Made by a program: the position numbers and the translations under genes. This document shows positions 2,627 to 13,950 of a stretch of DNA of 64,000 nucleotides, one piece after another. Source of the DNA: Escherichia coli (GTDB lineage Bacteria > Pseudomonadota > Gammaproteobacteria > Enterobacterales > Enterobacteriaceae); the NCBI RefSeq assembly GCF_044647545.1, contig NZ_CP172818.1, one strand, 5' to 3'. The notes below the pieces were generated by a model. That model was not told the origin of the DNA and ran no database searches. It saw only the letters and a list, made by a program, of their open reading frames with translations. Numbering within the stretch: position 1 is the first letter of the stretch; each line of letters starts with the position of its first letter.

Positions 2627-5056
2627 GTGTCGTCGTTGCCCGTTGCTGCCGTCTTACCTGAGTTACTTGCTGCCCTCGATGGTGCATCGCAGGTGTTATT
2701 AAGTGCGCCGACCGGGGCCGGGAAATCAACCTGGCTGCCGCTGCAACTGCTGGCGCATCCAGGCATTAACGGGAAAGTTATCCTGCTGGAGCCGCGTCGT
2801 CTGGCGGCGCGTAACGTTGCGCAACGACTGGCGGAGCTGCTTAACGAAAAGCCAGGCGATACCGTTGGCTACCGGATGCGTGCGCAAAACTGCGTCGGGC
2901 CGAATACCCGCCTGGAAGTGGTTACCGAAGGCGTGCTGACGCGGATGATCCAGCGTGACCCGGAACTGAGCGGTGTTGGATTGGTGATCCTTGATGAATT
3001 TCATGAGCGCAGCTTGCAGGCGGATTTGGCGTTGGCGCTGTTACTCGATGTGCAACAAGGTCTGCGTGATGACCTTAAACTGCTGATTATGTCGGCTACG
3101 CTGGACAACGACCGCTTGCAGCAAATGCTGCCAGAAGCGCCCGTCATCATCTCAGAAGGGCGCTCGTTTCCGGTTGAACGCCGTTATTTACCGCTGCCCG
3201 CGCATCAGCGTTTTGACGAAGCCGTTGCGGTAGCCACCGCCGAAATGCTGCGTCAGGAAAGCGGATCATTACTGTTATTTTTACCTGGCGTCGGAGAAAT
3301 TCAGCGTGTGCAGGAACAACTGGCTTCGCGCATCGGCAGTGATGTGTTGCTCTGCCCGCTGTATGGCGCGTTGTCGCTGAACGATCAGCGAAAAGCGATC
3401 CTCCCGGCACCGCAAGGGATGCGCAAAGTGGTGCTGGCGACCAATATTGCTGAAACCAGTTTAACCATTGAAGGTATTCGTCTGGTGGTGGATTGTGCCC
3501 AGGAGAGGGTGGCGCGTTTTGATCCGCGTACAGGGCTTACGCGGTTGATTACTCAACGCGTTAGTCAGGCGTCGATGACGCAACGTGCCGGGCGTGCCGG
3601 GCGTCTGGAGCCGGGTATCTGCCTGCATTTAATCGCCAAAGAACAAGCCGAACGCGCCGCGGCGCAAAGTGAACCGGAAATATTACAAAGCGATCTCTCC
3701 GGTTTGCTGATGGAATTACTGCAATGGGGATGCAGCGATCCTGCGCAGATGAGCTGGCTGGATCAACCGCCAACGGTGAATCTACTGGCCGCGAAACGCC
3801 TGTTACGGATGCTGGGGGCGCTGGACGGTGAACGGCTTAGTGCGCAAGGGCAAAAAATGGCAGCGCTGGGTAACGATCCGCGTTTAGCGGCAATGCTGGT
3901 TAGCGCGAAGAACGACGACGAAGCTGCTACCGCGGCAAAAATTGCCGCCATTCTCGAAGAGCCGCCACGGATGGGCAATAGTGACCTGGGCGTGGCGTTT
4001 TCGCGCAATCAACCCGCCTGGCAGCAACGTAGTCAGCAACTGTTAAAACGCTTAAACGTACGCGGCGGTGAGGCAGACAGTTCGCTTATCGCGCCGCTAC
4101 TTGCCAGAGCGTATGCCGATCGCATTGCTCGTCGCCGTGGGCAAGATGGACGCTATCAACTGGCGAACGGCATGGGGGCGATGCTCGATGCCGACGATGC
4201 GCTAAGCCGCCACGAATGGTTGATCGCACCGTTATTATTGCAGGGCAGCGCCTCGCCGGATGCGCGGATTTTACTGGCGCTACCGGTCGATATTGATGAG
4301 TTAGTACAACGCTGCCCGCAGCTGGTACAGCAATCGGACACCGTGGAGTGGGATGACGCGCAAGGTACGCTGAAAGCCTGGCGTCGGCTGCAAATCGGTC
4401 AGTTGATGGTGAAAGTGCAGCCACTGGCGAAACCCTCGGAAGACGAGTTGCATCAGGCGATGCTTAACGGCATTCGTGATAAAGGTTTAAGCGTGCTCAA
4501 CTGGACGGCGGAAGCGGAACAGTTACGCTTGCGTTTGTTATGCGCCGCAAAGTGGTTGCCGGAATATGACTGGCCAGCGGTTGATGATGAGAGTTTGTTG
4601 GCGACGCTGGAAACGTGGCTACTGCCGCATATGACAGGCGTACATTCGCTACGCGGCTTGAAATCACTCGATATTTATCAGGCACTGCGTGGATTACTTG
4701 ATTGGGTAATGCAGCAACGTCTGGATAGTGAATTGCCTGCGCATTACACTGTGCCGACGGGAAGCCGGATCGCCATTCGTTATCATGAAGATAACCCGCC
4801 CGCGCTGGCGGTGAGAATGCAGGAGATGTTTGGCGAGGCCACCAATCCGATGATCGCCCAGGGGCGCGTGCCGCTGGTGCTGGAGTTGCTTTCCCCTGCC
4901 CAAAGGCCGCTGCAAATCACGCGTGATTTGAGCGCCTTCTGGAAAGGAGCGTACCGTGAGGTGCAAAAAGAGATGAAAGGGCGTTATCCCAAACATGTCT
5001 GGCCGGACGACCCGGCAAACACCGCACCGACGCGACGAACGAAAAAGTATTCGTGA
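2627..5056 (+). CDS. hrpB: ATP-dependent RNA helicase HrpB (DEAH-box), ~809 aa
   Basis: Walker A SAPTGAGKST, DEFH motif (ILDEFHERS), SAT motif; probable GTG start at 2627 (VSSLPVAAVLPELL), ORF track start 2582 is an extension. Confidence 0.9.
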   Translation: MSSLPVAAVLPELLAALDGASQVLLSAPTGAGKSTWLPLQLLAHPGINGKVILLEPRRLAARNVAQRLAELLNEKPGDTVGYRMRAQNCVGPNTRLEVVTEGVLTRMIQRDPELSGVGLVILDEFHERSLQADLALALLLDVQQGLRDDLKLLIMSATLDNDRLQQMLPEAPVIISEGRSFPVERRYLPLPAHQRFDEAVAVATAEMLRQESGSLLLFLPGVGEIQRVQEQLASRIGSDVLLCPLYGALSLNDQRKAILPAPQGMRKVVLATNIAETSLTIEGIRLVVDCAQERVARFDPRTGLTRLITQRVSQASMTQRAGRAGRLEPGICLHLIAKEQAERAAAQSEPEILQSDLSGLLMELLQWGCSDPAQMSWLDQPPTVNLLAAKRLLRMLGALDGERLSAQGQKMAALGNDPRLAAMLVSAKNDDEAATAAKIAAILEEPPRMGNSDLGVAFSRNQPAWQQRSQQLLKRLNVRGGEADSSLIAPLLARAYADRIARRRGQDGRYQLANGMGAMLDADDALSRHEWLIAPLLLQGSASPDARILLALPVDIDELVQRCPQLVQQSDTVEWDDAQGTLKAWRRLQIGQLMVKVQPLAKPSEDELHQAMLNGIRDKGLSVLNWTAEAEQLRLRLLCAAKWLPEYDWPAVDDESLLATLETWLLPHMTGVHSLRGLKSLDIYQALRGLLDWVMQQRLDSELPAHYTVPTGSRIAIRYHEDNPPALAVRMQEMFGEATNPMIAQGRVPLVLELLSPAQRPLQITRDLSAFWKGAYREVQKEMKGRYPKHVWPDDPANTAPTRRTKKYS

Positions 5057-5149
5057 AGACCAAAGCAAATTTGAGAGATATCTTCTTCTGTCTTGCAACA
5101 GAAGAACAGAAAATCGGGCTTTTGCGCCTGAATATTGCGGAGAAAAAGC

Positions 5150-7684
5150 ATGGCCGGGAATGACCGCGAGCCAATTGGACGCAAAGGGAAACCGACGCGT
5201 CCGGTCAAACAAAAGGTAAGCCGTCGTCGTTACGAAGATGACGATGATTACGACGATTATGATGACTATGAGGATGAAGAACCGATGCCGCGCAAAGGTA
5301 AGGGCAAAGGCAAAGGGCGTAAGCCTCGTGGCAAACGCGGCTGGCTATGGCTGCTGCTAAAACTGGCTATCGTTTTTGCCGTGCTGATCGCCATTTACGG
5401 CGTTTATCTCGATCAAAAAATTCGCAGCCGTATTGATGGCAAGGTCTGGCAATTGCCCGCGGCAGTTTATGGCCGAATGGTCAACCTTGAGCCAGACATG
5501 ACCATCAGCAAGAACGAGATGGTGAAGCTGCTGGAGGCGACCCAGTATCGTCAGGTGTCGAAAATGACCCGTCCTGGCGAATTTACCGTGCAGGCCAACA
5601 GCATTGAGATGATCCGCCGTCCGTTTGATTTCCCGGACAGTAAAGAAGGGCAGGTGCGTGCACGTCTGACCTTTGATGGCGATCATCTGGCGACGATCGT
5701 CAATATGGAGAACAACCGTCAGTTCGGTTTCTTCCGTCTTGATCCGCGCCTGATCACTATGATCTCTTCACCAAACGGTGAGCAACGTCTGTTTGTGCCG
5801 CGCAGTGGTTTCCCGGATCTGCTGGTGGATACTTTGCTGGCAACAGAAGACCGTCATTTTTACGAGCATGATGGGATCAGTCTCTACTCCATCGGACGTG
5901 CGGTGCTGGCAAACCTGACCGCCGGACGCACGGTGCAGGGGGCGAGTACGCTGACGCAACAGCTGGTGAAAAACCTGTTCCTCTCCAGCGAGCGTTCTTA
6001 CTGGCGTAAAGCGAACGAAGCCTACATGGCGCTGATCATGGACGCGCGTTACAGCAAAGACCGTATTCTTGAGCTGTATATGAACGAGGTGTATCTCGGT
6101 CAGAGCGGCGACAACGAAATCCGCGGCTTCCCGCTGGCGAGCTTGTATTACTTTGGTCGCCCGGTAGAAGAATTGAGCCTCGATCAGCAGGCGCTGTTGG
6201 TGGGTATGGTGAAAGGGGCGTCCATCTACAACCCGTGGCGTAACCCGAAACTGGCGCTGGAGCGACGTAACCTGGTGCTACGTCTGCTGCAACAGCAACA
6301 GATTATTGATCAAGAACTCTATGACATGTTGAGTGCACGTCCGCTGGGTGTTCAGCCGCGCGGTGGGGTGATCTCTCCTCAGCCAGCCTTTATGCAACTG
6401 GTGCGTCAGGAGCTGCAGGCGAAATTAGGCGATAAGGTAAAAGATCTCTCCGGCGTGAAGATCTTCACTACCTTTGACTCGGTGGCCCAGGACGCGGCAG
6501 AAAAAGCCGCCGTGGAAGGCATTCCGGCACTGAAGAAACAGCGTAAGTTGAGCGATCTGGAAACCGCGATTGTGGTCGTCGACCGCTTTAGTGGTGAAGT
6601 TCGTGCGATGGTCGGTGGTTCTGAGCCGCAGTTTGCGGGCTACAACCGTGCGATGCAGGCGCGTCGTTCGATTGGTTCTCTTGCAAAACCAGCGACTTAT
6701 CTGACGGCCTTAAGCCAGCCGAAAATCTATCGCCTGAACACGTGGATTGCCGATGCGCCAATCGCGCTGCGTCAGCCGAATGGCCAGGTCTGGTCACCGC
6801 AGAACGATGACCGTCGTTATAGCGAAAGTGGCAGAGTGATGCTGGTGGATGCGTTGACCCGTTCGATGAACGTGCCGACGGTAAATCTGGGGATGGCGCT
6901 GGGGCTGCCTGCGGTTACGGAGACCTGGATTAAACTGGGCGTACCGAAAGATCAGCTGCATCCGGTTCCGGCGATGCTGCTGGGGGCGTTGAACTTAACG
7001 CCAATCGAAGTGGCGCAGGCATTCCAGACTATCGCCAGCGGCGGTAACCGTGCACCGCTTTCTGCGCTGCGTTCGGTAATTGCGGAAGATGGCAAAGTGC
7101 TGTATCAGAGCTTCCCGCAGGCGGAACGCGCGGTTCCGGCGCAGGCGGCGTATCTGACACTATGGACCATGCAGCAGGTGGTACAACGTGGTACGGGGCG
7201 TCAGCTTGGGGCGAAATACCCGAACCTGCATCTGGCAGGGAAAACAGGGACTACCAACAATAACGTAGATACCTGGTTTGCGGGCATTGACGGCAGCACG
7301 GTGACCATCACCTGGGTAGGCCGTGATAACAACCAGCCGACCAAACTGTATGGAGCCAGCGGGGCAATGTCGATTTATCAGCGTTATCTGGCTAACCAGA
7401 CGCCAACACCGCTGAATCTTGTTCCGCCAGAAGATATTGCAGATATGGGCGTGGACTACGACGGCAACTTTGTTTGCAGCGGTGGCATGCGTGTCTTGCC
7501 GGTCTGGACCAGCGATCCGCAATCGCTGTGCCAGCAGAGTGAGATTCAGCAGCAACCGTCAGGCAATCCGTTTGATCAGTCTTCTCAGCCGCAGCAACAA
7601 CCGCAACAGCAACCTGCTCAGCAAGAGCAGAAAGACAGCGACGGTGTAGCTGGTTGGATCAAGGATATGTTTGGTAGTAATTAA
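5150..7684 (+). CDS. mrcB: penicillin-binding protein 1B (bifunctional glycosyltransferase/transpeptidase), 844 aa
   Basis: [19 protein letters not shown]..., acidic [15 protein letters not shown] tract, TM segment, GT motif [12 protein letters not shown] motifs, Q-rich C-terminus. Confidence 0.95.
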
Positions 7685-7725: not shown

Positions 7726-7844
7726 AAAATAACATCCCACCTAAAGTATTAACCCTTTCTTTTCATCTGGTTGTTTATTAACCCTTCAGGAACGCTCAGA
7801 TTGCGTACCGCTTGCGAACCCGCCAGCGTTTCGAATATTATCTT

Positions 7845-7880
7845 ATCTTTATAATAATCATTCTCGTTTACGTTATCATT
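7845..7880 (+). promoter_or_regulatory. Fur box / iron-regulated promoter region of fhuA
   Basis: tctttATAATAATCATTctcgtttacgTTATCATTcac contains tandem Fur hexamer-like repeats (ATAATCATT / TTATCATT) overlapping a TATAAT -10 at 7850-7855. Confidence 0.6.
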
Positions 7881-7903
7881 CACTTTACATCAGAGATATA
7901 CCA

Positions 7904-10087
7904 ATGGCGCGTTCCAAAACTGCTCAGCCAAAACACTCACTGCGTAAAATCGCAGTTGTAGTAGCCACAGCGGTTAGCGGCATGTCTGTTTATGCACAGG
8001 CAGCGGTTGAACCGAAAGAAGACACTATCACCGTTACCGCTGCACCTGCGCCGCAAGAAAGCGCATGGGGGCCAGCTGCAACTATTGCGGCGAAGCACTC
8101 TGCTACTGCGACTAAAACGGATACACCAATTGAAAAAACGCCGCAGTCTATTTCGGTTGTGACAAATGAAGAGATGCAGATGCATCAATTTCAGTCTGTA
8201 AAAGAAGCATTAGGTTATACACCTGGCGTTACAGTTAGCAGTCGTGGTGCTTCTAATACATATGATTTTGTTATCATTCGTGGTTTCTCATCTGTTGGCC
8301 TGAATCAAAATAACTACCTTGATGGACTAAAACTTCAGGGCAACTTTTATAACGATGCTGTGATTGATCCTTACATGCTCGAGAGGGTTGAACTGATGCG
8401 TGGGCCGACGTCTGTTCTCTATGGAAAAAGTAATCCTGGTGGGATTATTTCTATGGTGAGTAAGCGCCCGACCACTGACCCCCTGAAAGAAATTCAGTTT
8501 AAAATGGGGACGGATAATCTGTTTCAGACCGGATTCGATTTCAGTGATGCGCTGGATGATAACGGTGAGTTCTCCTACCGTTTGACTGGCCTCGCTCGCT
8601 CAACAAACGAACAGCAGAAAAACTCTGAATCTCAGCGTTATACCATTGCTCCATCATTCTCATGGCGGCCGGACGACAAAACCAATTTAACTTTCCTGTC
8701 CTATTTCCAGAATGAACCAGAAACGGGTTATTACGGTTGGTTGCCGAAAGAGGGGACCGTTGAGCCATTGCCTAATGGTAAGCGTCTACCGACTGACTTC
8801 AATGAAGGTGCGTCGAATAATACATACTCCCGTAACCAGAAAATGGTGGGATATAGTTTTGAACATGGTTTTAATGACACCTTCACCGTGCGTCAGAATC
8901 TGCGTTTCAGTGAAATGAAAACCTCACAGAAAAGTGTTTATGGCCACAGGGATTGCCAGCGATGGTCATACCCTAAACCGCGGGACAGTGGTGGATAATG
9001 AGCGTCTACAAAACTTTAGCGTTGATACCCAACTTGAAAGTAAGTTTGCTACAGGTGACGTCGGGCATACTTTGCTGACAGGGGTAGACTTCATGCGTAT
9101 GCGCAATGATATCAATGCCAGCTTTGGATCTGCACCATCCATCGATCTTTATAACAAATACCATCCTGAATACTTTGCATTTGGTAGCGCAGAGCCATAC
9201 CAGATGAATGAAAGCAAACAAACAGGTATTTATGTTCAGGATCAGGCGGAATGGAATAAATGGGTATTCACTCTGGGGGGGCGCTACGATTGGTCTAAGC
9301 AAGCGACCAAAAACTCTTATACGCCGACTGAAGGTTATATTGAGCGCAATGATCATCAGTTCACCTGGCGCGGTGGTGTAAATTACTTATTCGATAATGG
9401 TATTTCACCTTACTTTAGCTATAGCCAGTCCTTTGAACCGAGTGCTTTCGATCTGGGAACAAGCAACCCGCGCGTTTCCTATAAGCCATCGAAAGGTGAA
9501 CAGTATGAAGCTGGCGTAAAATATGTTCCGAATGATATGCCGGTCGTTGTTACGGGCGCAGTCTATCAATTGACGAAAACAAATAACCTGACAGCAGACC
9601 CAACAAACCCCATTAGCGAAGTCCCGCAGGTGAGATTCGCGCTCGTGGTGTGGAACTTGAAGCAAAAGCGGCGTTAAATGCCAATATTAACTTGACGGCT
9701 TCTTATACCTACACCGATGCGGAATACACCAAAGACACCAATCTCAAAGGTAAAACTCCAGAACAAGTACCGAAGCATATGGCATCTCTCTGGGGGGATT
9801 ATACCTTCAATGAAGGGCCGTTTTCTGGTTTAACATTGGGAACAGGTGGTCGTTTTATTGGTTCCAGCTATGGTGATCCGGCGAACACTTTTAAAGTGGG
9901 TAGCGCAGCTGTAATGGATGCTGTTGTAAAATATGATCTGGCACGCTTTGGTATGGCGGGATCCAGCCTTGCTGTGAACGTCAACAATTTGCTCGATCGT
10001 GAGTATGTTGCCAGTTGCTTCCAGACCTATGGCTGCTTCTGGGGCGCAGAACGTCAGGTCGTTGCAACCGCAACCTTCCGTTTCTAA
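7904..10087 (+). pseudogene. fhuA: ferrichrome outer-membrane transporter FhuA (TonB-dependent receptor), reading frame interrupted by two frameshifts
   Basis: Three consecutive ORFs (7904..8998, 8934..9677, 9650..10087) each translate to FhuA-like sequence; ORF1 and ORF3 share a frame, ORF2 is +1; junctions at ~8945-8957 and ~9629-9630. Confidence 0.85.
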
Positions 10088-10935: not shown

Positions 10936-11825
10936 TGAGCGGCTTACCTCTTATTTCGCGCCGTCGACTGTTAACGGCGATGGCGCTTTCTCCGTTGTTA
11001 TGGCAGATGAATACCGCCCACGCGGCGGCTATTGATCCCAATCGTATTGTGGCGCTGGAGTGGTTGCCGGTGGAATTACTGCTGGCGCTCGGCATCGTGC
11101 CTTACGGCGTGGCGGATACCATCAACTATCGCCTGTGGGTCAGCGAACCGCCATTGCCGGACTCAGTGATTGACGTTGGTTTGCGTACAGAACCTAACCT
11201 TGAACTGCTGACCGAAATGAAACCATCGTTTATGGTCTGGTCGGCAGGATATGGCCCTTCACCAGAAATGCTGGCACGTATTGCGCCGGGTCGCGGATTT
11301 AACTTCAGTGACGGCAAACAGCCGCTGGCGATGGCGCGTAAATCACTGACGGAAATGGCAGATTTACTTAACCTGCAAAGCGCAGCAGAAACGCATTTAG
11401 CGCACTATGAAGACTTTATCCGCAGCATGAAACCCCGCTTTGTGAAGCGTGGTGCACGCCCGTTATTGCTGACGACACTTATCGATCCGCGCCATATGTT
11501 GGTCTTCGGTCCAAACAGCCTGTTCCAGGAAATTCTTGATGAGTACGGCATCCCAAATGCCTGGCAAGGGGAAACCAACTTTTGGGGCAGTACCGCCGTC
11601 AGTATCGATCGTCTGGCAGCGTATAAAGACGTTGATGTGCTCTGTTTTGATCACGACAACAGCAAAGACATGGATGCGCTAATGGCAACCCCGCTGTGGC
11701 AGGCCATGCCGTTTGTCCGCGCCGGACGCTTTCAGCGCGTTCCGGCGGTCTGGTTCTATGGTGCGACGCTTTCTGCAATGCACTTTGTGCGTATTCTGGA
11801 TAACGCCATCGGAGGTAAAGCGTGA
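10935..11825 (+). CDS. fhuD: ferric hydroxamate periplasmic binding protein (296 aa)
   Basis: MSGLPLISRRRLLTAMALSPLLWQMNTAHAAAIDPNRIVALEW...; ATGA overlap with fhuC stop. Confidence 0.93.
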   Translation: MSGLPLISRRRLLTAMALSPLLWQMNTAHAAAIDPNRIVALEWLPVELLLALGIVPYGVADTINYRLWVSEPPLPDSVIDVGLRTEPNLELLTEMKPSFMVWSAGYGPSPEMLARIAPGRGFNFSDGKQPLAMARKSLTEMADLLNLQSAAETHLAHYEDFIRSMKPRFVKRGARPLLLTTLIDPRHMLVFGPNSLFQEILDEYGIPNAWQGETNFWGSTAVSIDRLAAYKDVDVLCFDHDNSKDMDALMATPLWQAMPFVRAGRFQRVPAVWFYGATLSAMHFVRILDNAIGGKA

Positions 11826-13804
11826 GTAAACGAATTGCGCTTTTTCCGGTGTTATTGCTGGTGCTGCTGGTGGTTGCTGCTGCGGCGTTGACCTGGATGA
11901 ACTTCTCGCAGGCGCTGCCGCGCAGCCAGTGGGCGCAGGCCGCCTGGTCGCCGGATATTGACGTCATCGAGCAGATGATTTTTCACTACAGCTTGTTGCC
12001 GCGTCTGGCGATTTCGCTGCTGGTGGGCGCGGGCCTGGGGATGGTGGGCGTGCTGTTTCAGCAAGTGCTGCGTAACCCGCTGGCGGAACCGACGACGTTG
12101 GGTGTTGCAACAGGCGCGCAACTGGGGATTACCGTCACCACGCTCTGGGCGATCCCAGGTGCTATGGCGAGCCAGTTTGCTGCGCTGGCAGGGGCTTGTG
12201 TTGTTGGCTTAATCGTCTTTGGCGTCGCGTGGGGGAAACGGCTTTCGCCGGTAACGCTGATCCTCGCGGGGCTGGTAGTGAGCCTTTATTGCGGCGCAAT
12301 CAATCAGTTACTGGTTATCTTCCATCATGACCAACTGCAAAGCATGTTCCTGTGGAGCACCGGAACGCTGACGCAAACCGACTGGGGCGGCGTTGAGCGT
12401 TTATGGCCGCAGCTGCTGGGCGGCGTGATGCTGACGTTATTGCTACTTCGCCCGTTAACCCTGATGGGGCTTGATGATGGCGTGGCGCGCAATCTCGGGC
12501 TGGCCTTGTCGCTCGCGCGTCTGGCGGCGTTGTCGCTGGCGATTGTCATCAGTGCGCTGCTGGTGAACGCGGTGGGGATTATCGGCTTTATCGGGTTGTT
12601 CGCGCCGCTGCTGGCAAAAATGCTGGGGGCGCGGCGTCTGCTGCCACGGTTAATGCTGGCGTCGCTGATTGGTGCGTTAATTCTGTGGCTTTCTGATCAA
12701 ATCATCCTCTGGCTGACTCGCGTGTGGATGGAAGTTTCCACCGGTTCGGTCACTGCGTTGATCGGTGCGCCGCTGTTACTGTGGTTGCTGCCGCGTTTAC
12801 GCAGCATTAGCGCGCCGGATATGAAGGTGAACGATCGTGTCGCGACTGAACGCCAACACGTGCTGGCGTTTGCCCTCGCGGGCGGCGTGCTGCTGTTGAT
12901 GGCTGTGGTGGTGGCGCTGTCGTTTGGTCGTGATGCGCACGGCTGGACGTGGGCGAGCGGGGCGTTGCTCGAGGATTTGATGCCCTGGCGCTGGCCGCGA
13001 ATTATGGCGGCGCTGTTTGCTGGCGTCATGCTGGCGGTGGCGGGCTGTATTATTCAGCGGCTGACCGGAAACCCGATGGCAAGCCCGGAAGTGCTGGGGA
13101 TTAGCTCCGGCGCGGCGTTTGGCGTGGTGTTAATGCTGTTTCTGGTGCCGGGTAATGCCTTTGGCTGGCTGTTACCCGCAGGCAGTCTCGGGGCGGCGGT
13201 GACGCTGTTGATCATTATGATCGCCGCCGGACGCGGTGGATTTTCCCCACACCGCATGTTACTGGCGGGGATGGCGTTAAGTACCGCGTTCACGATGCTT
13301 TTGATGATGTTGCAGGCAAGTGGTGACCCGCGAATGGCGCAAGTTCTGACCTGGATTTCCGGTTCGACCTACAACGCGACCGAGGCGCAGGTCTGGCGCA
13401 CGGGAATTGTGATGGTAATTTTGCTGGCGATTACCCCGCTGTGCCGCCGCTGGCTGACCATTTTACCGCTGGGCGGTGATACCGCACGAGCCGTGGGGAT
13501 GGCGCTGACGCCGACGCGAATTGCGCTGCTGCTGTTAGCGGCTTGCCTGACAGCGACTGCGACAATGACCATTGGACCGTTGAGTTTTGTTGGTTTAATG
13601 GCACCGCATATTGCGCGGATGATGGGCTTTCGACGGACGATGCCGCATATTATGATTTCGGCGCTGGTGGGTGGTTTACTGCTGGTGTTCGCTGACTGGT
13701 GTGGGCGGATGGTGCTGTTTCCATTCCAGATCCCAGCGGGGCTGCTGTCGACCTTTATCGGCGCGCCGTATTTTATCTATTTGTTGAGAAAGCAGAGCCG
13801 TTAA
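11822..13804 (+). CDS. fhuB: ferric hydroxamate ABC transporter permease (660 aa, duplicated permease domains)
   Basis: 660-aa hydrophobic ORF, 4-bp overlap with fhuD. Confidence 0.93.
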   Translation: MSKRIALFPVLLLVLLVVAAAALTWMNFSQALPRSQWAQAAWSPDIDVIEQMIFHYSLLPRLAISLLVGAGLGMVGVLFQQVLRNPLAEPTTLGVATGAQLGITVTTLWAIPGAMASQFAALAGACVVGLIVFGVAWGKRLSPVTLILAGLVVSLYCGAINQLLVIFHHDQLQSMFLWSTGTLTQTDWGGVERLWPQLLGGVMLTLLLLRPLTLMGLDDGVARNLGLALSLARLAALSLAIVISALLVNAVGIIGFIGLFAPLLAKMLGARRLLPRLMLASLIGALILWLSDQIILWLTRVWMEVSTGSVTALIGAPLLLWLLPRLRSISAPDMKVNDRVATERQHVLAFALAGGVLLLMAVVVALSFGRDAHGWTWASGALLEDLMPWRWPRIMAALFAGVMLAVAGCIIQRLTGNPMASPEVLGISSGAAFGVVLMLFLVPGNAFGWLLPAGSLGAAVTLLIIMIAAGRGGFSPHRMLLAGMALSTAFTMLLMMLQASGDPRMAQVLTWISGSTYNATEAQVWRTGIVMVILLAITPLCRRWLTILPLGGDTARAVGMALTPTRIALLLLAACLTATATMTIGPLSFVGLMAPHIARMMGFRRTMPHIMISALVGGLLLVFADWCGRMVLFPFQIPAGLLSTFIGAPYFIYLLRKQSR

Positions 13805-13857
13805 TTTTTCCATATAACGGCCCTTAACTCCTGGATGGATAAAGCTTTTACGCGGCA

Positions 13858-13950
13858 ACGGATGCCCGATGCGACGCTGTGGCGTCTTATCGGGCCTACA
13901 AACGGTCCTGATCTGTAGGTCGGATAAGGCGTTTACGCCGCATCCGACAA
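13858..13950. repeat. BIME: two REP palindromic units between convergent fhuB and hemL
   Basis: gcccgatgcgacgctgtggcgtcttatcgggcctac ... gtaggtcggataaggcgtttacgccgcatccgac; matches REP consensus GCCGGATGCGGCG..CTTATCCGGCCTAC. Confidence 0.8.

Follow-up and report, generated by a model that had tools for sequence, protein, structure and literature searches.

In Escherichia coli K-12, FhuA (b0150; PDB 1BY3, 2FCP, 1QFG, 8A8C, 8B14) is a 22-strand TonB-dependent barrel with a plug. The closest described system to the allele analyzed here is FhuA cluster 'E3' (Wang, Chen, Zhu, White, Koster, 2018, bioRxiv 10.1101/320069), in which loops L4 and L5 are short and L6 and L7 are longer, and which groups with the Salmonella cluster 'S2'; the 'mosaic evolution' of FhuA has since been treated in follow-up preprints (10.1101/2021.09.21.461324, 10.1101/2024.10.30.621157). 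Published work places phage attachment at EL8, L4 and L5, and involves EL7/EL8 in pb5 binding and in the Llp block. Divergent fhuA has been linked to microcin J25 (MccJ25) resistance in E. coli isolates, and frameshifted fhuA genes are known from S. Typhi and Paratyphi A.

The allele described below shares with E3 of Wang et al. (2018) its indel pattern, chromosomal locus and synteny, its affinity to the Salmonella FhuA type and its mosaic distribution across E. coli lineages, but differs in that the present copy carries six private lesions instead of an intact open reading frame. Taken as a whole, the observations are very probably explained by a known E3 allotype that is an old resident of E. 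coli and keeps transport behind a changed surface, with the lesions likelier an assembly error.

The fhuA Locus and Its Reading Frames

By its sequence, the locus represents the chromosomal fhuACDB operon, in an E. coli nearly identical to FDAARGOS_497 over the 64 kb of the window (the whole stretch of DNA analyzed). According to the annotation of the collinear FDAARGOS_497 region (99.955% identical), fhuA is the first gene of fhuACDB and lies between mrcB and hemL; the present gene is 99.3% identical to the 'ferrichrome porin FhuA' annotated there. Residues 34-729 matched the FhuA structures PDB 8A60, 1BY3 and 2FCP at an E-value of 0 (phmmer), and domains PF07715 and PF00593 are precomputed on close relatives of the present FhuA. 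Both crystal and cryo-EM structures of FhuA were among the phmmer matches of this type. The gene, its reading frames and its immediate surroundings are as follows.

7851-7903, plus strand: upstream region of fhuA and leader, 100% identical to K-12 (alignment)
7904-10087, plus strand: fhuA, E3-type allele, 2184 nt, 727 codons once frame-corrected, no single ORF in the present record (ORF list)
7904-8998, plus strand: ORF1, 364 aa, covering the signal peptide, the TonB box, the plug and the first strands of the barrel, followed by 18 codons out of frame and a stop
8934-9677, plus strand: ORF2, the native FhuA frame from the +1 insertion at 8944 to the indel cluster at 9611-9625
9650-10087, plus strand: ORF3, the native C-terminal FhuA frame, ending at the normal stop codon
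10099-10118, plus strand: GC-rich hairpin (GGGCACGGA..TCCGTGCCC) directly past the fhuA stop, common to K-12 (sequence and alignment)

A full-length barrel from one intact ORF was absent; the ORF list splits the gene into three, read in frames 2, 0 and 2, and the +1 insertion leads to a stop at 8996-8998. This three-ORF state of fhuA may reflect sequence error. After frame correction the present copy has 727 codons, compared with 729 in the closest intact allele (2190 nt in the intact FDAARGOS_497 type) and 747 in K-12 fhuA, which agrees with the original prediction of a product about 20 codons shorter than that of K-12. Positions 7851-7903, which by analogy with K-12 would hold the fhuA promoter, were entirely K-12-identical, so this promoter or regulatory region appears unexchanged.

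A Divergent Core With Sharp Boundaries

In a sliding identity profile against K-12, mrcB and fhuCDB were conserved at 95-100%, whereas identity over 8100-10000 was only 55-80%, bearing out the expectation of a divergent fhuA between conserved flanks.

About 8093-10029, plus strand: divergent core of the allele, 55-80% nucleotide identity to K-12, GC 0.45, GC3 about 0.41-0.43

Both breakpoints were sharp and intragenic, with 100% identity up to about 8073, divergence from about 8093 and the last mismatch at about 10029, leaving 190 nt at the 5′ end and 58 nt at the 3′ end of fhuA K-12-like; in the protein, residues 1-62 and about 20 residues at the C-terminal end are identical to K-12 FhuA. The suspected AT-richness of the gene was evident both in total GC (0.44-0.47 over 7750-9999, compared with 0.53-0.62 in the flanks) and in GC3 (0.43 for fhuA, 0.58-0.71 for the flanks). 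The 1.94-kb core, which lies wholly inside fhuA, belongs to an allelic lineage far from the K-12 (E1) type. The reading of fhuA as a putative recombinationally exchanged receptor allele is supported by the sharp intragenic breakpoints, the deviant composition, the recurrence of the same boundaries in unrelated backgrounds and the concentration of divergence in the loops. The earlier proposal of an exchanged or diversifying receptor gene gains from the breakpoints, composition and shared boundaries, and has to be amended in that the allele is the known E3 and the exchange appears to be old.

Surface Loops and Functional Residues

FhuA of the present allele was identical to the K-12 protein in 558 of 755 aligned columns (about 74%; another estimate gave about 74-77%), and the divergence was concentrated in surface loops L4-L8, while the plug and the TonB box were conserved, as was loop L3, with 30 of its 31 positions identical. 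The plug and 22-strand barrel are shared with K-12 by homology, and the TonB box DTITV (mature residues 7-11) is the same. Of the residues taken to line the ferrichrome pocket in the 1998 crystal structures, R81, G99, F115, Y116, Y244, W246, Y313 and F391 were kept, and most putative ferrichrome-binding residues are shared with K-12, but Q100 is replaced by Leu and Y315 by Thr. Y244 and W246 have been described as ferrichrome (Fc) sites, and F115 and Y116 as plug residues.

The largest change in the protein alignment was in L4, where K-12 'CSDPANAYSKQCAALAPADKGH' corresponds to 'ASD-GH'; 17 residues and both cysteines are lost, the K-12 Cys318-Cys329 pair lying within these 17 residues. The loss had been correctly predicted to fall at the long Cys-containing loop.

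8946-8984, plus strand: shortened surface loop L4 (TGIASDGHTLNRG), replacing a 17-residue-longer, disulfide-containing K-12 loop (converted from FDAARGOS_497 codons 348-360)

The other loops that differ from K-12 in length and sequence are L5 (8 residues shorter), EL6 (5 residues longer, at K-12 mature about 460-470), EL7 (about 3 residues longer, at K-12 mature 505-512) and EL8; the length changes in L5, EL6 and EL7 had not been part of the original prediction. An AF2 model of the intact allele (overall pLDDT 49.5) was used solely for strand and loop positions, in its better-predicted 320-600 stretch.

The intact allele retains the TonB box, plug, L3 and most putative ferrichrome contacts. 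Its loops L4-L8, which phages T1, T5 and phi80, colicin M and microcin J25 exploit, are remodelled. From this conserved machinery combined with remodelled L4-L8 we infer that an intact E3 allele probably still imports ferric hydroxamates and presents an altered receptor surface.

Assignment to E3 and Spread in E. coli

Judged by loop description and grouping, the allele is FhuA cluster E3 of Wang et al. (2018) and is already known. Relative to E1 (K-12), L4 has 17 and L5 has 8 residues fewer, the insertions at Indel 5 and Indel 6 (L6 and L7 of Wang et al.) amount to +5 and about +3, and the protein shares 94% identity and a 90% cluster with FhuA of Salmonella enterica, as expected from the grouping of E3 with S2. 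The allele was carried by 562 of the 5,426 complete E. coli genomes, or about one tenth, and carriers from unrelated E. coli backgrounds had the same allele boundaries. Because fhuA of 78 complete genomes is >99% identical to the present gene, the possibility raised beforehand, that the allele might prove >98% identical to fhuA of common E. coli, came true in part; the comparison with K-12 and the GC deviation both hold.

Age and Origin of the Allele

Synonymous divergence (pS) between E3 and every non-E. coli relative was saturated at 0.68-0.83. For Salmonella S2, pS was 0.74 and pN 0.033, compared with a pS of 0.54-0.63 in the flanking genes. Among the E. coli carriers of E3, by comparison, pS was 0.04-0.09, equal to the diversity of the flanks. 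Given this saturation against relatives and this flank-like diversity within E. coli, E3 would be a long-established allotype of the species, for which the sampled genomes contain no donor, and not a recent transfer. The combination points away from a recent exchange and toward what may be a receptor type of great age under strong constraint.

Transfer of the divergent core in recent times from Salmonella, Citrobacter or another sampled enteric genus would account for its GC content, lower than that of the flanks, and for a protein identity of 89-94% to FhuA of Salmonella, Citrobacter sp., Superficieibacter, Lelliottia and Kluyvera, when other Escherichia species reach about 73%. We nevertheless regard such a transfer as very improbable. 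Nucleotide identity to those genera is merely 76-80%, and the similarity across genera is one of protein only, since synonymous sites are saturated at a pS above that of the flanking genes between E. coli and Salmonella. Moreover, GC3 of the allele (0.41-0.43) lies below that of every candidate donor (0.49-0.70), and its diversity within E. coli equals that of the flanks. A search of 100,044 species representatives and a protein database for near-identical donor DNA found none, the best non-E. coli match having 80% nucleotide identity and a pS of at least 0.68. The frequent post-speciation exchange between genera read from the FhuA data by Wang et al. (2018) is not supported by the synonymous-site analysis. 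Still less credible is an origin in place from a K-12-type gene by diversifying selection on point mutations. Amino-acid differences do gather in the surface loops, and earlier genome scans, as cited in later work, reported positive selection on fhuA; however, pS between K-12 and the allele is saturated (0.67, compared with 0.06-0.11 in the flanks), identity changes abruptly at two points, and the same protein type is present in other genera.

As an old resident allotype, E3 would persist as an old polymorphism that is moved between backgrounds by homologous recombination, with end points that would fall in the conserved gene termini. In the carrier SCPM-O-B-8794 a low-GC fimbrial operon stands beside the E3 fhuA, and the idea that both belong to a co-transferred island was considered but found no support, since the two are kept apart by the K-12-like 5′ end of fhuA and some 140 nt of normal promoter. 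The existence of E3 and its loop pattern are already published; the synonymous saturation of E3, its GC3 as the lowest among sampled relatives and the caution about lesions set out below are modest additions.

Private Lesions in the Present Record

Across the window only 10 events (9 of indel type and 1 SNP) separated the present record from FDAARGOS_497, and 6 of them are packed into a 682-nt stretch of fhuA (such clustering has a P of about 2e-9). Where the original prediction had counted two frameshifts, there are thus four 1-nt indels, a 9-nt deletion and a TGG>GGAACA replacement, in order +C, -9, TGG>GGAACA, +C, -C and -G.

8944, plus strand: +1 insertion (GGC>GGCC) in the codon after Gly347 (K-12 mature G314), base of EL4; frameshift with stop at 8996-8998
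9309-9310, plus strand: junction of the 9-nt deletion (CTGTTCGTG), TTVRE to TK, loop EL6
9456-9461, plus strand: TGG>GGAACA, Trp to Gly-Thr, net +3 nt, tip of EL7, aligned to K-12 D509
9611-9626, plus strand: three 1-nt indels in 15 nt (+C at 9611, -C after 9618, -G after 9625), EL8 tip (K-12 mature 556-561)

The lesions sit at or beside EL4, EL6, EL7 and EL8, a placement at loop tips that is weakly significant (P 0.04-0.10). At the TGG>GGAACA site Trp is found in all aligned E3/S2-type relatives but one, which has Tyr, and K-12 differs there. The net -1 of the last three indels returns reading to the original frame. As written, the lesioned allele would encode only the 364-aa fragment. The three indels outside fhuA lie in or adjoining intergenic hairpins, outside coding sequence, and were found in none of the best-matching complete genomes. 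The exact ORF1 product was found in the protein collection for one NCBI contig only, and the exact GGAACA variant had 0 matches among metagenome contigs. The frame breaks, which the original prediction had passed over as incidental, are the sole feature unique to the present record.

Three sources of the lesions were considered and set aside. Micro-recombination from another sub-allele was rejected because no lesion occurred among the 562 carriers and their best identity over 8900-9680 (97.7%) was the same as that of the intact FDAARGOS_497 type. Mis-polishing by a contaminating homologue from another genus was rejected since, at the lesion sites, neither Gly-Thr nor the TVR deletion nor PISE occurs in any relative. 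Compensating frameshifts that would give a translated middle segment in an alternative frame were likewise rejected: the frame that opens at 8944 runs into the stop at 8996-8998, and ORF2 reads in the native FhuA frame.

Relative to its intact ortholog the present gene has frame-disrupting lesions, one mark of a pseudogene, though these are seen in a single assembly. Inactivated fhuA is found elsewhere, including a 673-nt internal deletion in the E3 carrier Br_112_kylling. Like S. Typhi, Paratyphi A and Br_112_kylling, the present record combines a frame-disrupted receptor with intact fhuCDB and preserved synteny, but inactivated genes elsewhere have one or two lineage-shared lesions, as against six in 682 nt of a single assembly here. 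Because 9 of the 10 differences from FDAARGOS_497 are of indel type, we lean toward a poorly polished assembly patch as the probable source of all six. Over the 682 nt the errors would reach a density of about 1%, on the order of one read. Also on the side of an artefact are the crowding of the three 1-nt indels, the restriction of the broken product to one contig, and the position of the other indels at intergenic hairpins together with their absence from the best-matching genomes.

That the lesions are real, left by repeated hits on fhuA, for example under phage, colicin or microcin pressure alternating with the need for iron, seems to us somewhat improbable. On this account in-frame changes at loop tips would have come first (the 9-nt loss in EL6, Trp to Gly-Thr in EL7 and the +1/-1 pair in EL8), followed by frame-breaking indels that abolish the receptor and may act in a polar way on fhuCDB. 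It draws on the extreme clustering in fhuA and the location at or beside loop tips, on the in-frame -9 and +3 and the self-compensating +1/-1 at 9611/9618, such as receptor selection would leave, on the avoidance of coding sequence by all three other indels, and on the existence of natural fhuA pseudogenes. Nine indel-type changes to one SNP against a clone-mate are, however, unlike natural divergence. The +1 at 8944 makes later changes neutral, so that several more in 680 nt need an ordered history, and of the two frame-breaking indels, which lie 681 nt from each other, one would have sufficed; nor did any of the lesions occur in the 562 allele carriers or in metagenomes, and the truncated product is confined to a single contig. 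A stepwise arms race in one clinical-type clone, with genuine edits at the EL6, EL7 and EL8 tips and then inactivation, is in our judgment unlikely. With regard to such an arms race, the tip edits would in part be frameshifts followed by compensation, while the other 63 kb gained one substitution and three intergenic indels.

Implications

The fhuA of the present record should not be called a natural pseudogene without a check of the reads. T1-, T5- and phi80-like phages, colicin M, microcin J25, albomycin and rifamycin CGP 4832 all use FhuA to enter the cell. In about one in ten sequenced E. coli, multidrug-resistant lineages among them, the allotype preserves the siderophore machinery and is changed in L4-L8. 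E3 bears on the prediction of host range in phage therapy and on siderophore-conjugate and microcin antibiotics.

A divergent fhuA in a K-12-like locus

fhuA lies at 7904–10087 of the window, according to the ORF list and to how a collinear E. coli chromosome is annotated, flanked by mrcB (5135–7684) on one side and fhuC, fhuD, fhuB and hemL on the other. No single ORF spans the gene, which is split three ways in the ORF list:

7904–8998, frame 2, fhuA ORF1
8934–9677, frame 0, fhuA ORF2
9650–10087, frame 2, fhuA ORF3

Only a 364-aa fragment is expected from the gene as written, since the frame shift at 8944 leads to a stop at 8996–8998. Frame-corrected, the gene encodes 727 aa, compared to 747 aa in K-12.

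In 100-nt steps, mrcB and fhuCDB showed 95–100% identity to K-12 MG1655, whereas ~8100–10000 showed 55–80%, and both transitions were abrupt and located within fhuA. No difference from K-12 was found from at least 7851 to ~8073; divergence began at ~8093, the final mismatch was near 10029, and the last 58 nt of fhuA and the hairpin downstream were K-12-like again. GC was 0.44–0.47 over 7750–9999 compared to 0.53–0.62 on either side. Relative to K-12, surface loop L4 is 17 residues shorter (CSDPANAYSKQCAALAPADKGH replaced with ASD-GH, both cysteines gone) and L5 8 residues shorter, EL6 is 5 residues longer and EL7 about 3 longer. The plug (130 of 160 residues identical) and loop L3 (30 of 31) are conserved, as are the TonB box and most ferrichrome-pocket residues; K-12 Q100 and Y315 are replaced with Leu and Thr. 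The original prediction of a divergent, AT-rich fhuA between K-12-like flanks, about 20 codons short and reduced in its Cys-containing loop, was borne out by these comparisons.

Elsewhere in the region, the hrpB–mrcB intergenic (~5054–5062) lacks a ~100-nt repetitive, GC-rich, palindromic, REP-like insert of K-12, both in the window and in the near-identical E. coli strain FDAARGOS_497. Three stretches of fhuB (~11800–11900, ~12600–12700 and ~13800–13900) showed 89–92% identity to K-12 against a background of 95–99%, and may be small recombination patches.

The allele belongs to FhuA cluster E3

E. coli FhuA has been split into clusters E1–E4 (Wang et al., 2018, bioRxiv 10.1101/320069). Relative to E1 (K-12), E3 is described there with L4 extensively shortened, L5 shortened and insertions in L6 and L7, and it groups with Salmonella cluster S2. 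The window allele is E3, since its indel pattern agrees with E3 and the encoded protein shows 94% identity to FhuA of Salmonella enterica, with which it shares a 90% cluster. By megablast, 562 of 5,426 complete E. coli genomes carry the allele at ≥95% identity (78 at ≥99%); the rest match at 80–90% only. In later preprints from the same group fhuA is the prototype of outer-membrane-protein ‘mosaic evolution’, and a microcin study listed ‘fhuA: sequence divergence’ for MccJ25-resistant E. coli isolates. The sharp intra-gene boundaries, composition shift and known class support the predicted exchanged receptor allele, but this interpretation is not new because E3 is already described and common. 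Among the 7,392 members of the 90%-identity cluster are FhuC proteins of 265 aa. Their inclusion looks like a database clustering artefact, for which a fused or read-through fhuA–fhuC prediction may be responsible.

Age and origin of E3

Outside E. coli, the proteins closest to E3 come from Citrobacter sp., Superficieibacter, Lelliottia nimipressuralis and Kluyvera intermedia, at 89–93% identity, and FhuA of other Escherichia species is ~73% identical; at the DNA level, however, the divergent core (8093–10029) has just 76–80% identity to all of these.

Nei-Gojobori estimates of pN and pS (S2, the Salmonella FhuA cluster grouping with E3)
fhuA, E3 vs Salmonella S2: pN 0.033, pS 0.74
mrcB, same E3 and Salmonella genomes: pN 0.036, pS 0.55
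fhuC, same genomes: pN 0.048, pS 0.54
fhuD, same genomes: pN 0.111, pS 0.63
fhuA, E3 vs 14 other non-E. coli relatives: pN 0.040–0.151, pS 0.68–0.83
E3 among E. coli carriers of different backgrounds: pN 0.002–0.006, pS 0.04–0.09
Flanking genes, E3 strain vs K-12: pN 0.001–0.003, pS 0.06–0.11

Carriers in different backgrounds have common internal boundaries in fhuA. GC3 of E3 (0.41–0.43; 0.40–0.43 across the window core and the E3 alleles of other E. coli carriers) is below that of every sampled relative (0.49–0.70), K-12 fhuA (0.535) and the flanks (0.58–0.71), although E3 and its flanks are equally diverse within E. coli. From these sequence comparisons we conclude that E3 is an old allotype whose residence in E. 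coli roughly matches the age of diversity in the species itself, and that very strong purifying selection acts on it, even in the loops. A recent origin by transfer from Salmonella or Citrobacter was rejected on the low DNA identity and the pS of 0.68–0.83, and divergence in place by point mutation was rejected because pS relative to K-12 is 0.67. No donor lineage was found among the sampled relatives outside E. coli; the source lineage is unsampled. An old resident allotype refines the reading of frequent inter-genus exchange after speciation (Wang et al., 2018).

In E. coli SCPM-O-B-8794 (L005:258–3784), low-GC (0.42–0.44) chaperone-usher fimbrial genes, including an usher (PF00577) and a MrkD-like adhesin, lie directly upstream of an E3-type fhuA, and homology to the window restarts only ~140 nt ahead of fhuA. 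Their GC is near that of the E3 core, but normal E. coli promoter sequence lies between.

Lesions private to this record

The window and FDAARGOS_497, whose E3-type fhuA is intact (2190 nt), are 99.955% identical across 64,000 nt, with only ten differences, six of them within 682 nt of fhuA.

Differences from FDAARGOS_497 (fhuA sites with K-12 mature positions)
8944: +C (GGC>GGCC); G314, base of EL4
after 9309: 9-nt loss of CTGTTCGTG; ~460, EL6
9456–9461: TGG>GGAACA; ~509, EL7 tip
9611–9625: +C 9611, -C after 9618, -G after 9625; 556–561, EL8 tip
24032: +C; intergenic cdaR/yaeH, in or beside hairpin/palindrome
30931–30932: ACGCTC>G; intergenic rpsB–tsf, in or beside hairpin/palindrome
32823: -GGGG; intergenic pyrH–frr, in or beside hairpin/palindrome
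63679: A/G change upstream of 16S rRNA gene, sole substitution in 64 kb

Published K-12 work places EL7 at 501–516 and EL8 at 546–564, with loop tips D509 and F557. A weak AF2 model of the intact allele (pLDDT 49.5 overall, 60–84 over residues 320–600) likewise predicts the lesions at or beside the EL4, EL6, EL7 and EL8 turns. In aligned relatives they hit near-invariant E3/S2-type positions (V/I-R of the TVR segment; Trp, which is Tyr in one relative only). None of the 562 allele carriers has the fhuA lesions, no complete E. coli genome has the 30931 and 32823 deletions (best match 99.6%), and GGAACA had no exact match in metagenome contigs. The 364-aa product is recorded from one NCBI contig (4,499,902 bp) only.

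We consider the fhuA lesions probably a local assembly artefact. Nine indel-type events against one SNP separate the clone-mates, each of the five 1-nt indels affects G/C, the losses of several nt fall within GC-rich hairpins, three indels lie inside 15 nt, and the 682-nt patch has an error density of ~1%, comparable to one read or an unpolished bridge. That the lesions are real is a lesser, though appreciable, possibility: they cluster in fhuA far past chance (P ~2e-9; ~2e-7 after scan correction), neither the -9 nor the +3 event shifts the frame, the 9611/9618 pair is self-compensating, the sites are loop tips, at weak significance (P 0.04–0.10), and outside fhuA the indels spared all coding sequence. 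Inactivated fhuA is also documented in nature, by the 673-nt deletion in the E3 allele of E. coli Br_112_kylling and by S. Typhi frameshifts. The artefact was ranked higher because local assembly errors are much commoner, and the cluster, the sole record-specific feature, is more likely technical than biological. The indel spectrum at 24032, 30931 and 32823 bears on the question of error-prone assembly.

E. coli Br_112_kylling (L089:2505–4021) carries an E3-type fhuA annotated as a frameshifted pseudogene, with an internal deletion (~673 nt) overlapping the window’s lesion region, an independent natural loss in the same allele class.

Proposed function and maintenance

Published work on K-12 FhuA assigns the principal T5 pb5 contacts to L4, L5, EL7 and EL8. 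It also shows that cells whose FhuA lacks EL8 are insensitive to several phages, and that T5, phi80, colicin M and albomycin are all blocked when EL7 and EL8 move. Given these roles, an E3 allotype with different L4–L8 would be expected to escape ligands specialised for the K-12 surface and still import ferric hydroxamates. What the sequences themselves show is how the allele is built, which transport elements it conserves and which loops it remodels, where its recombination boundaries lie inside the gene, how frequent it is in the population and that its synonymous divergence is saturated. Frequency-dependent selection driven by phages and bacteriocins would maintain both FhuA types in E. coli.
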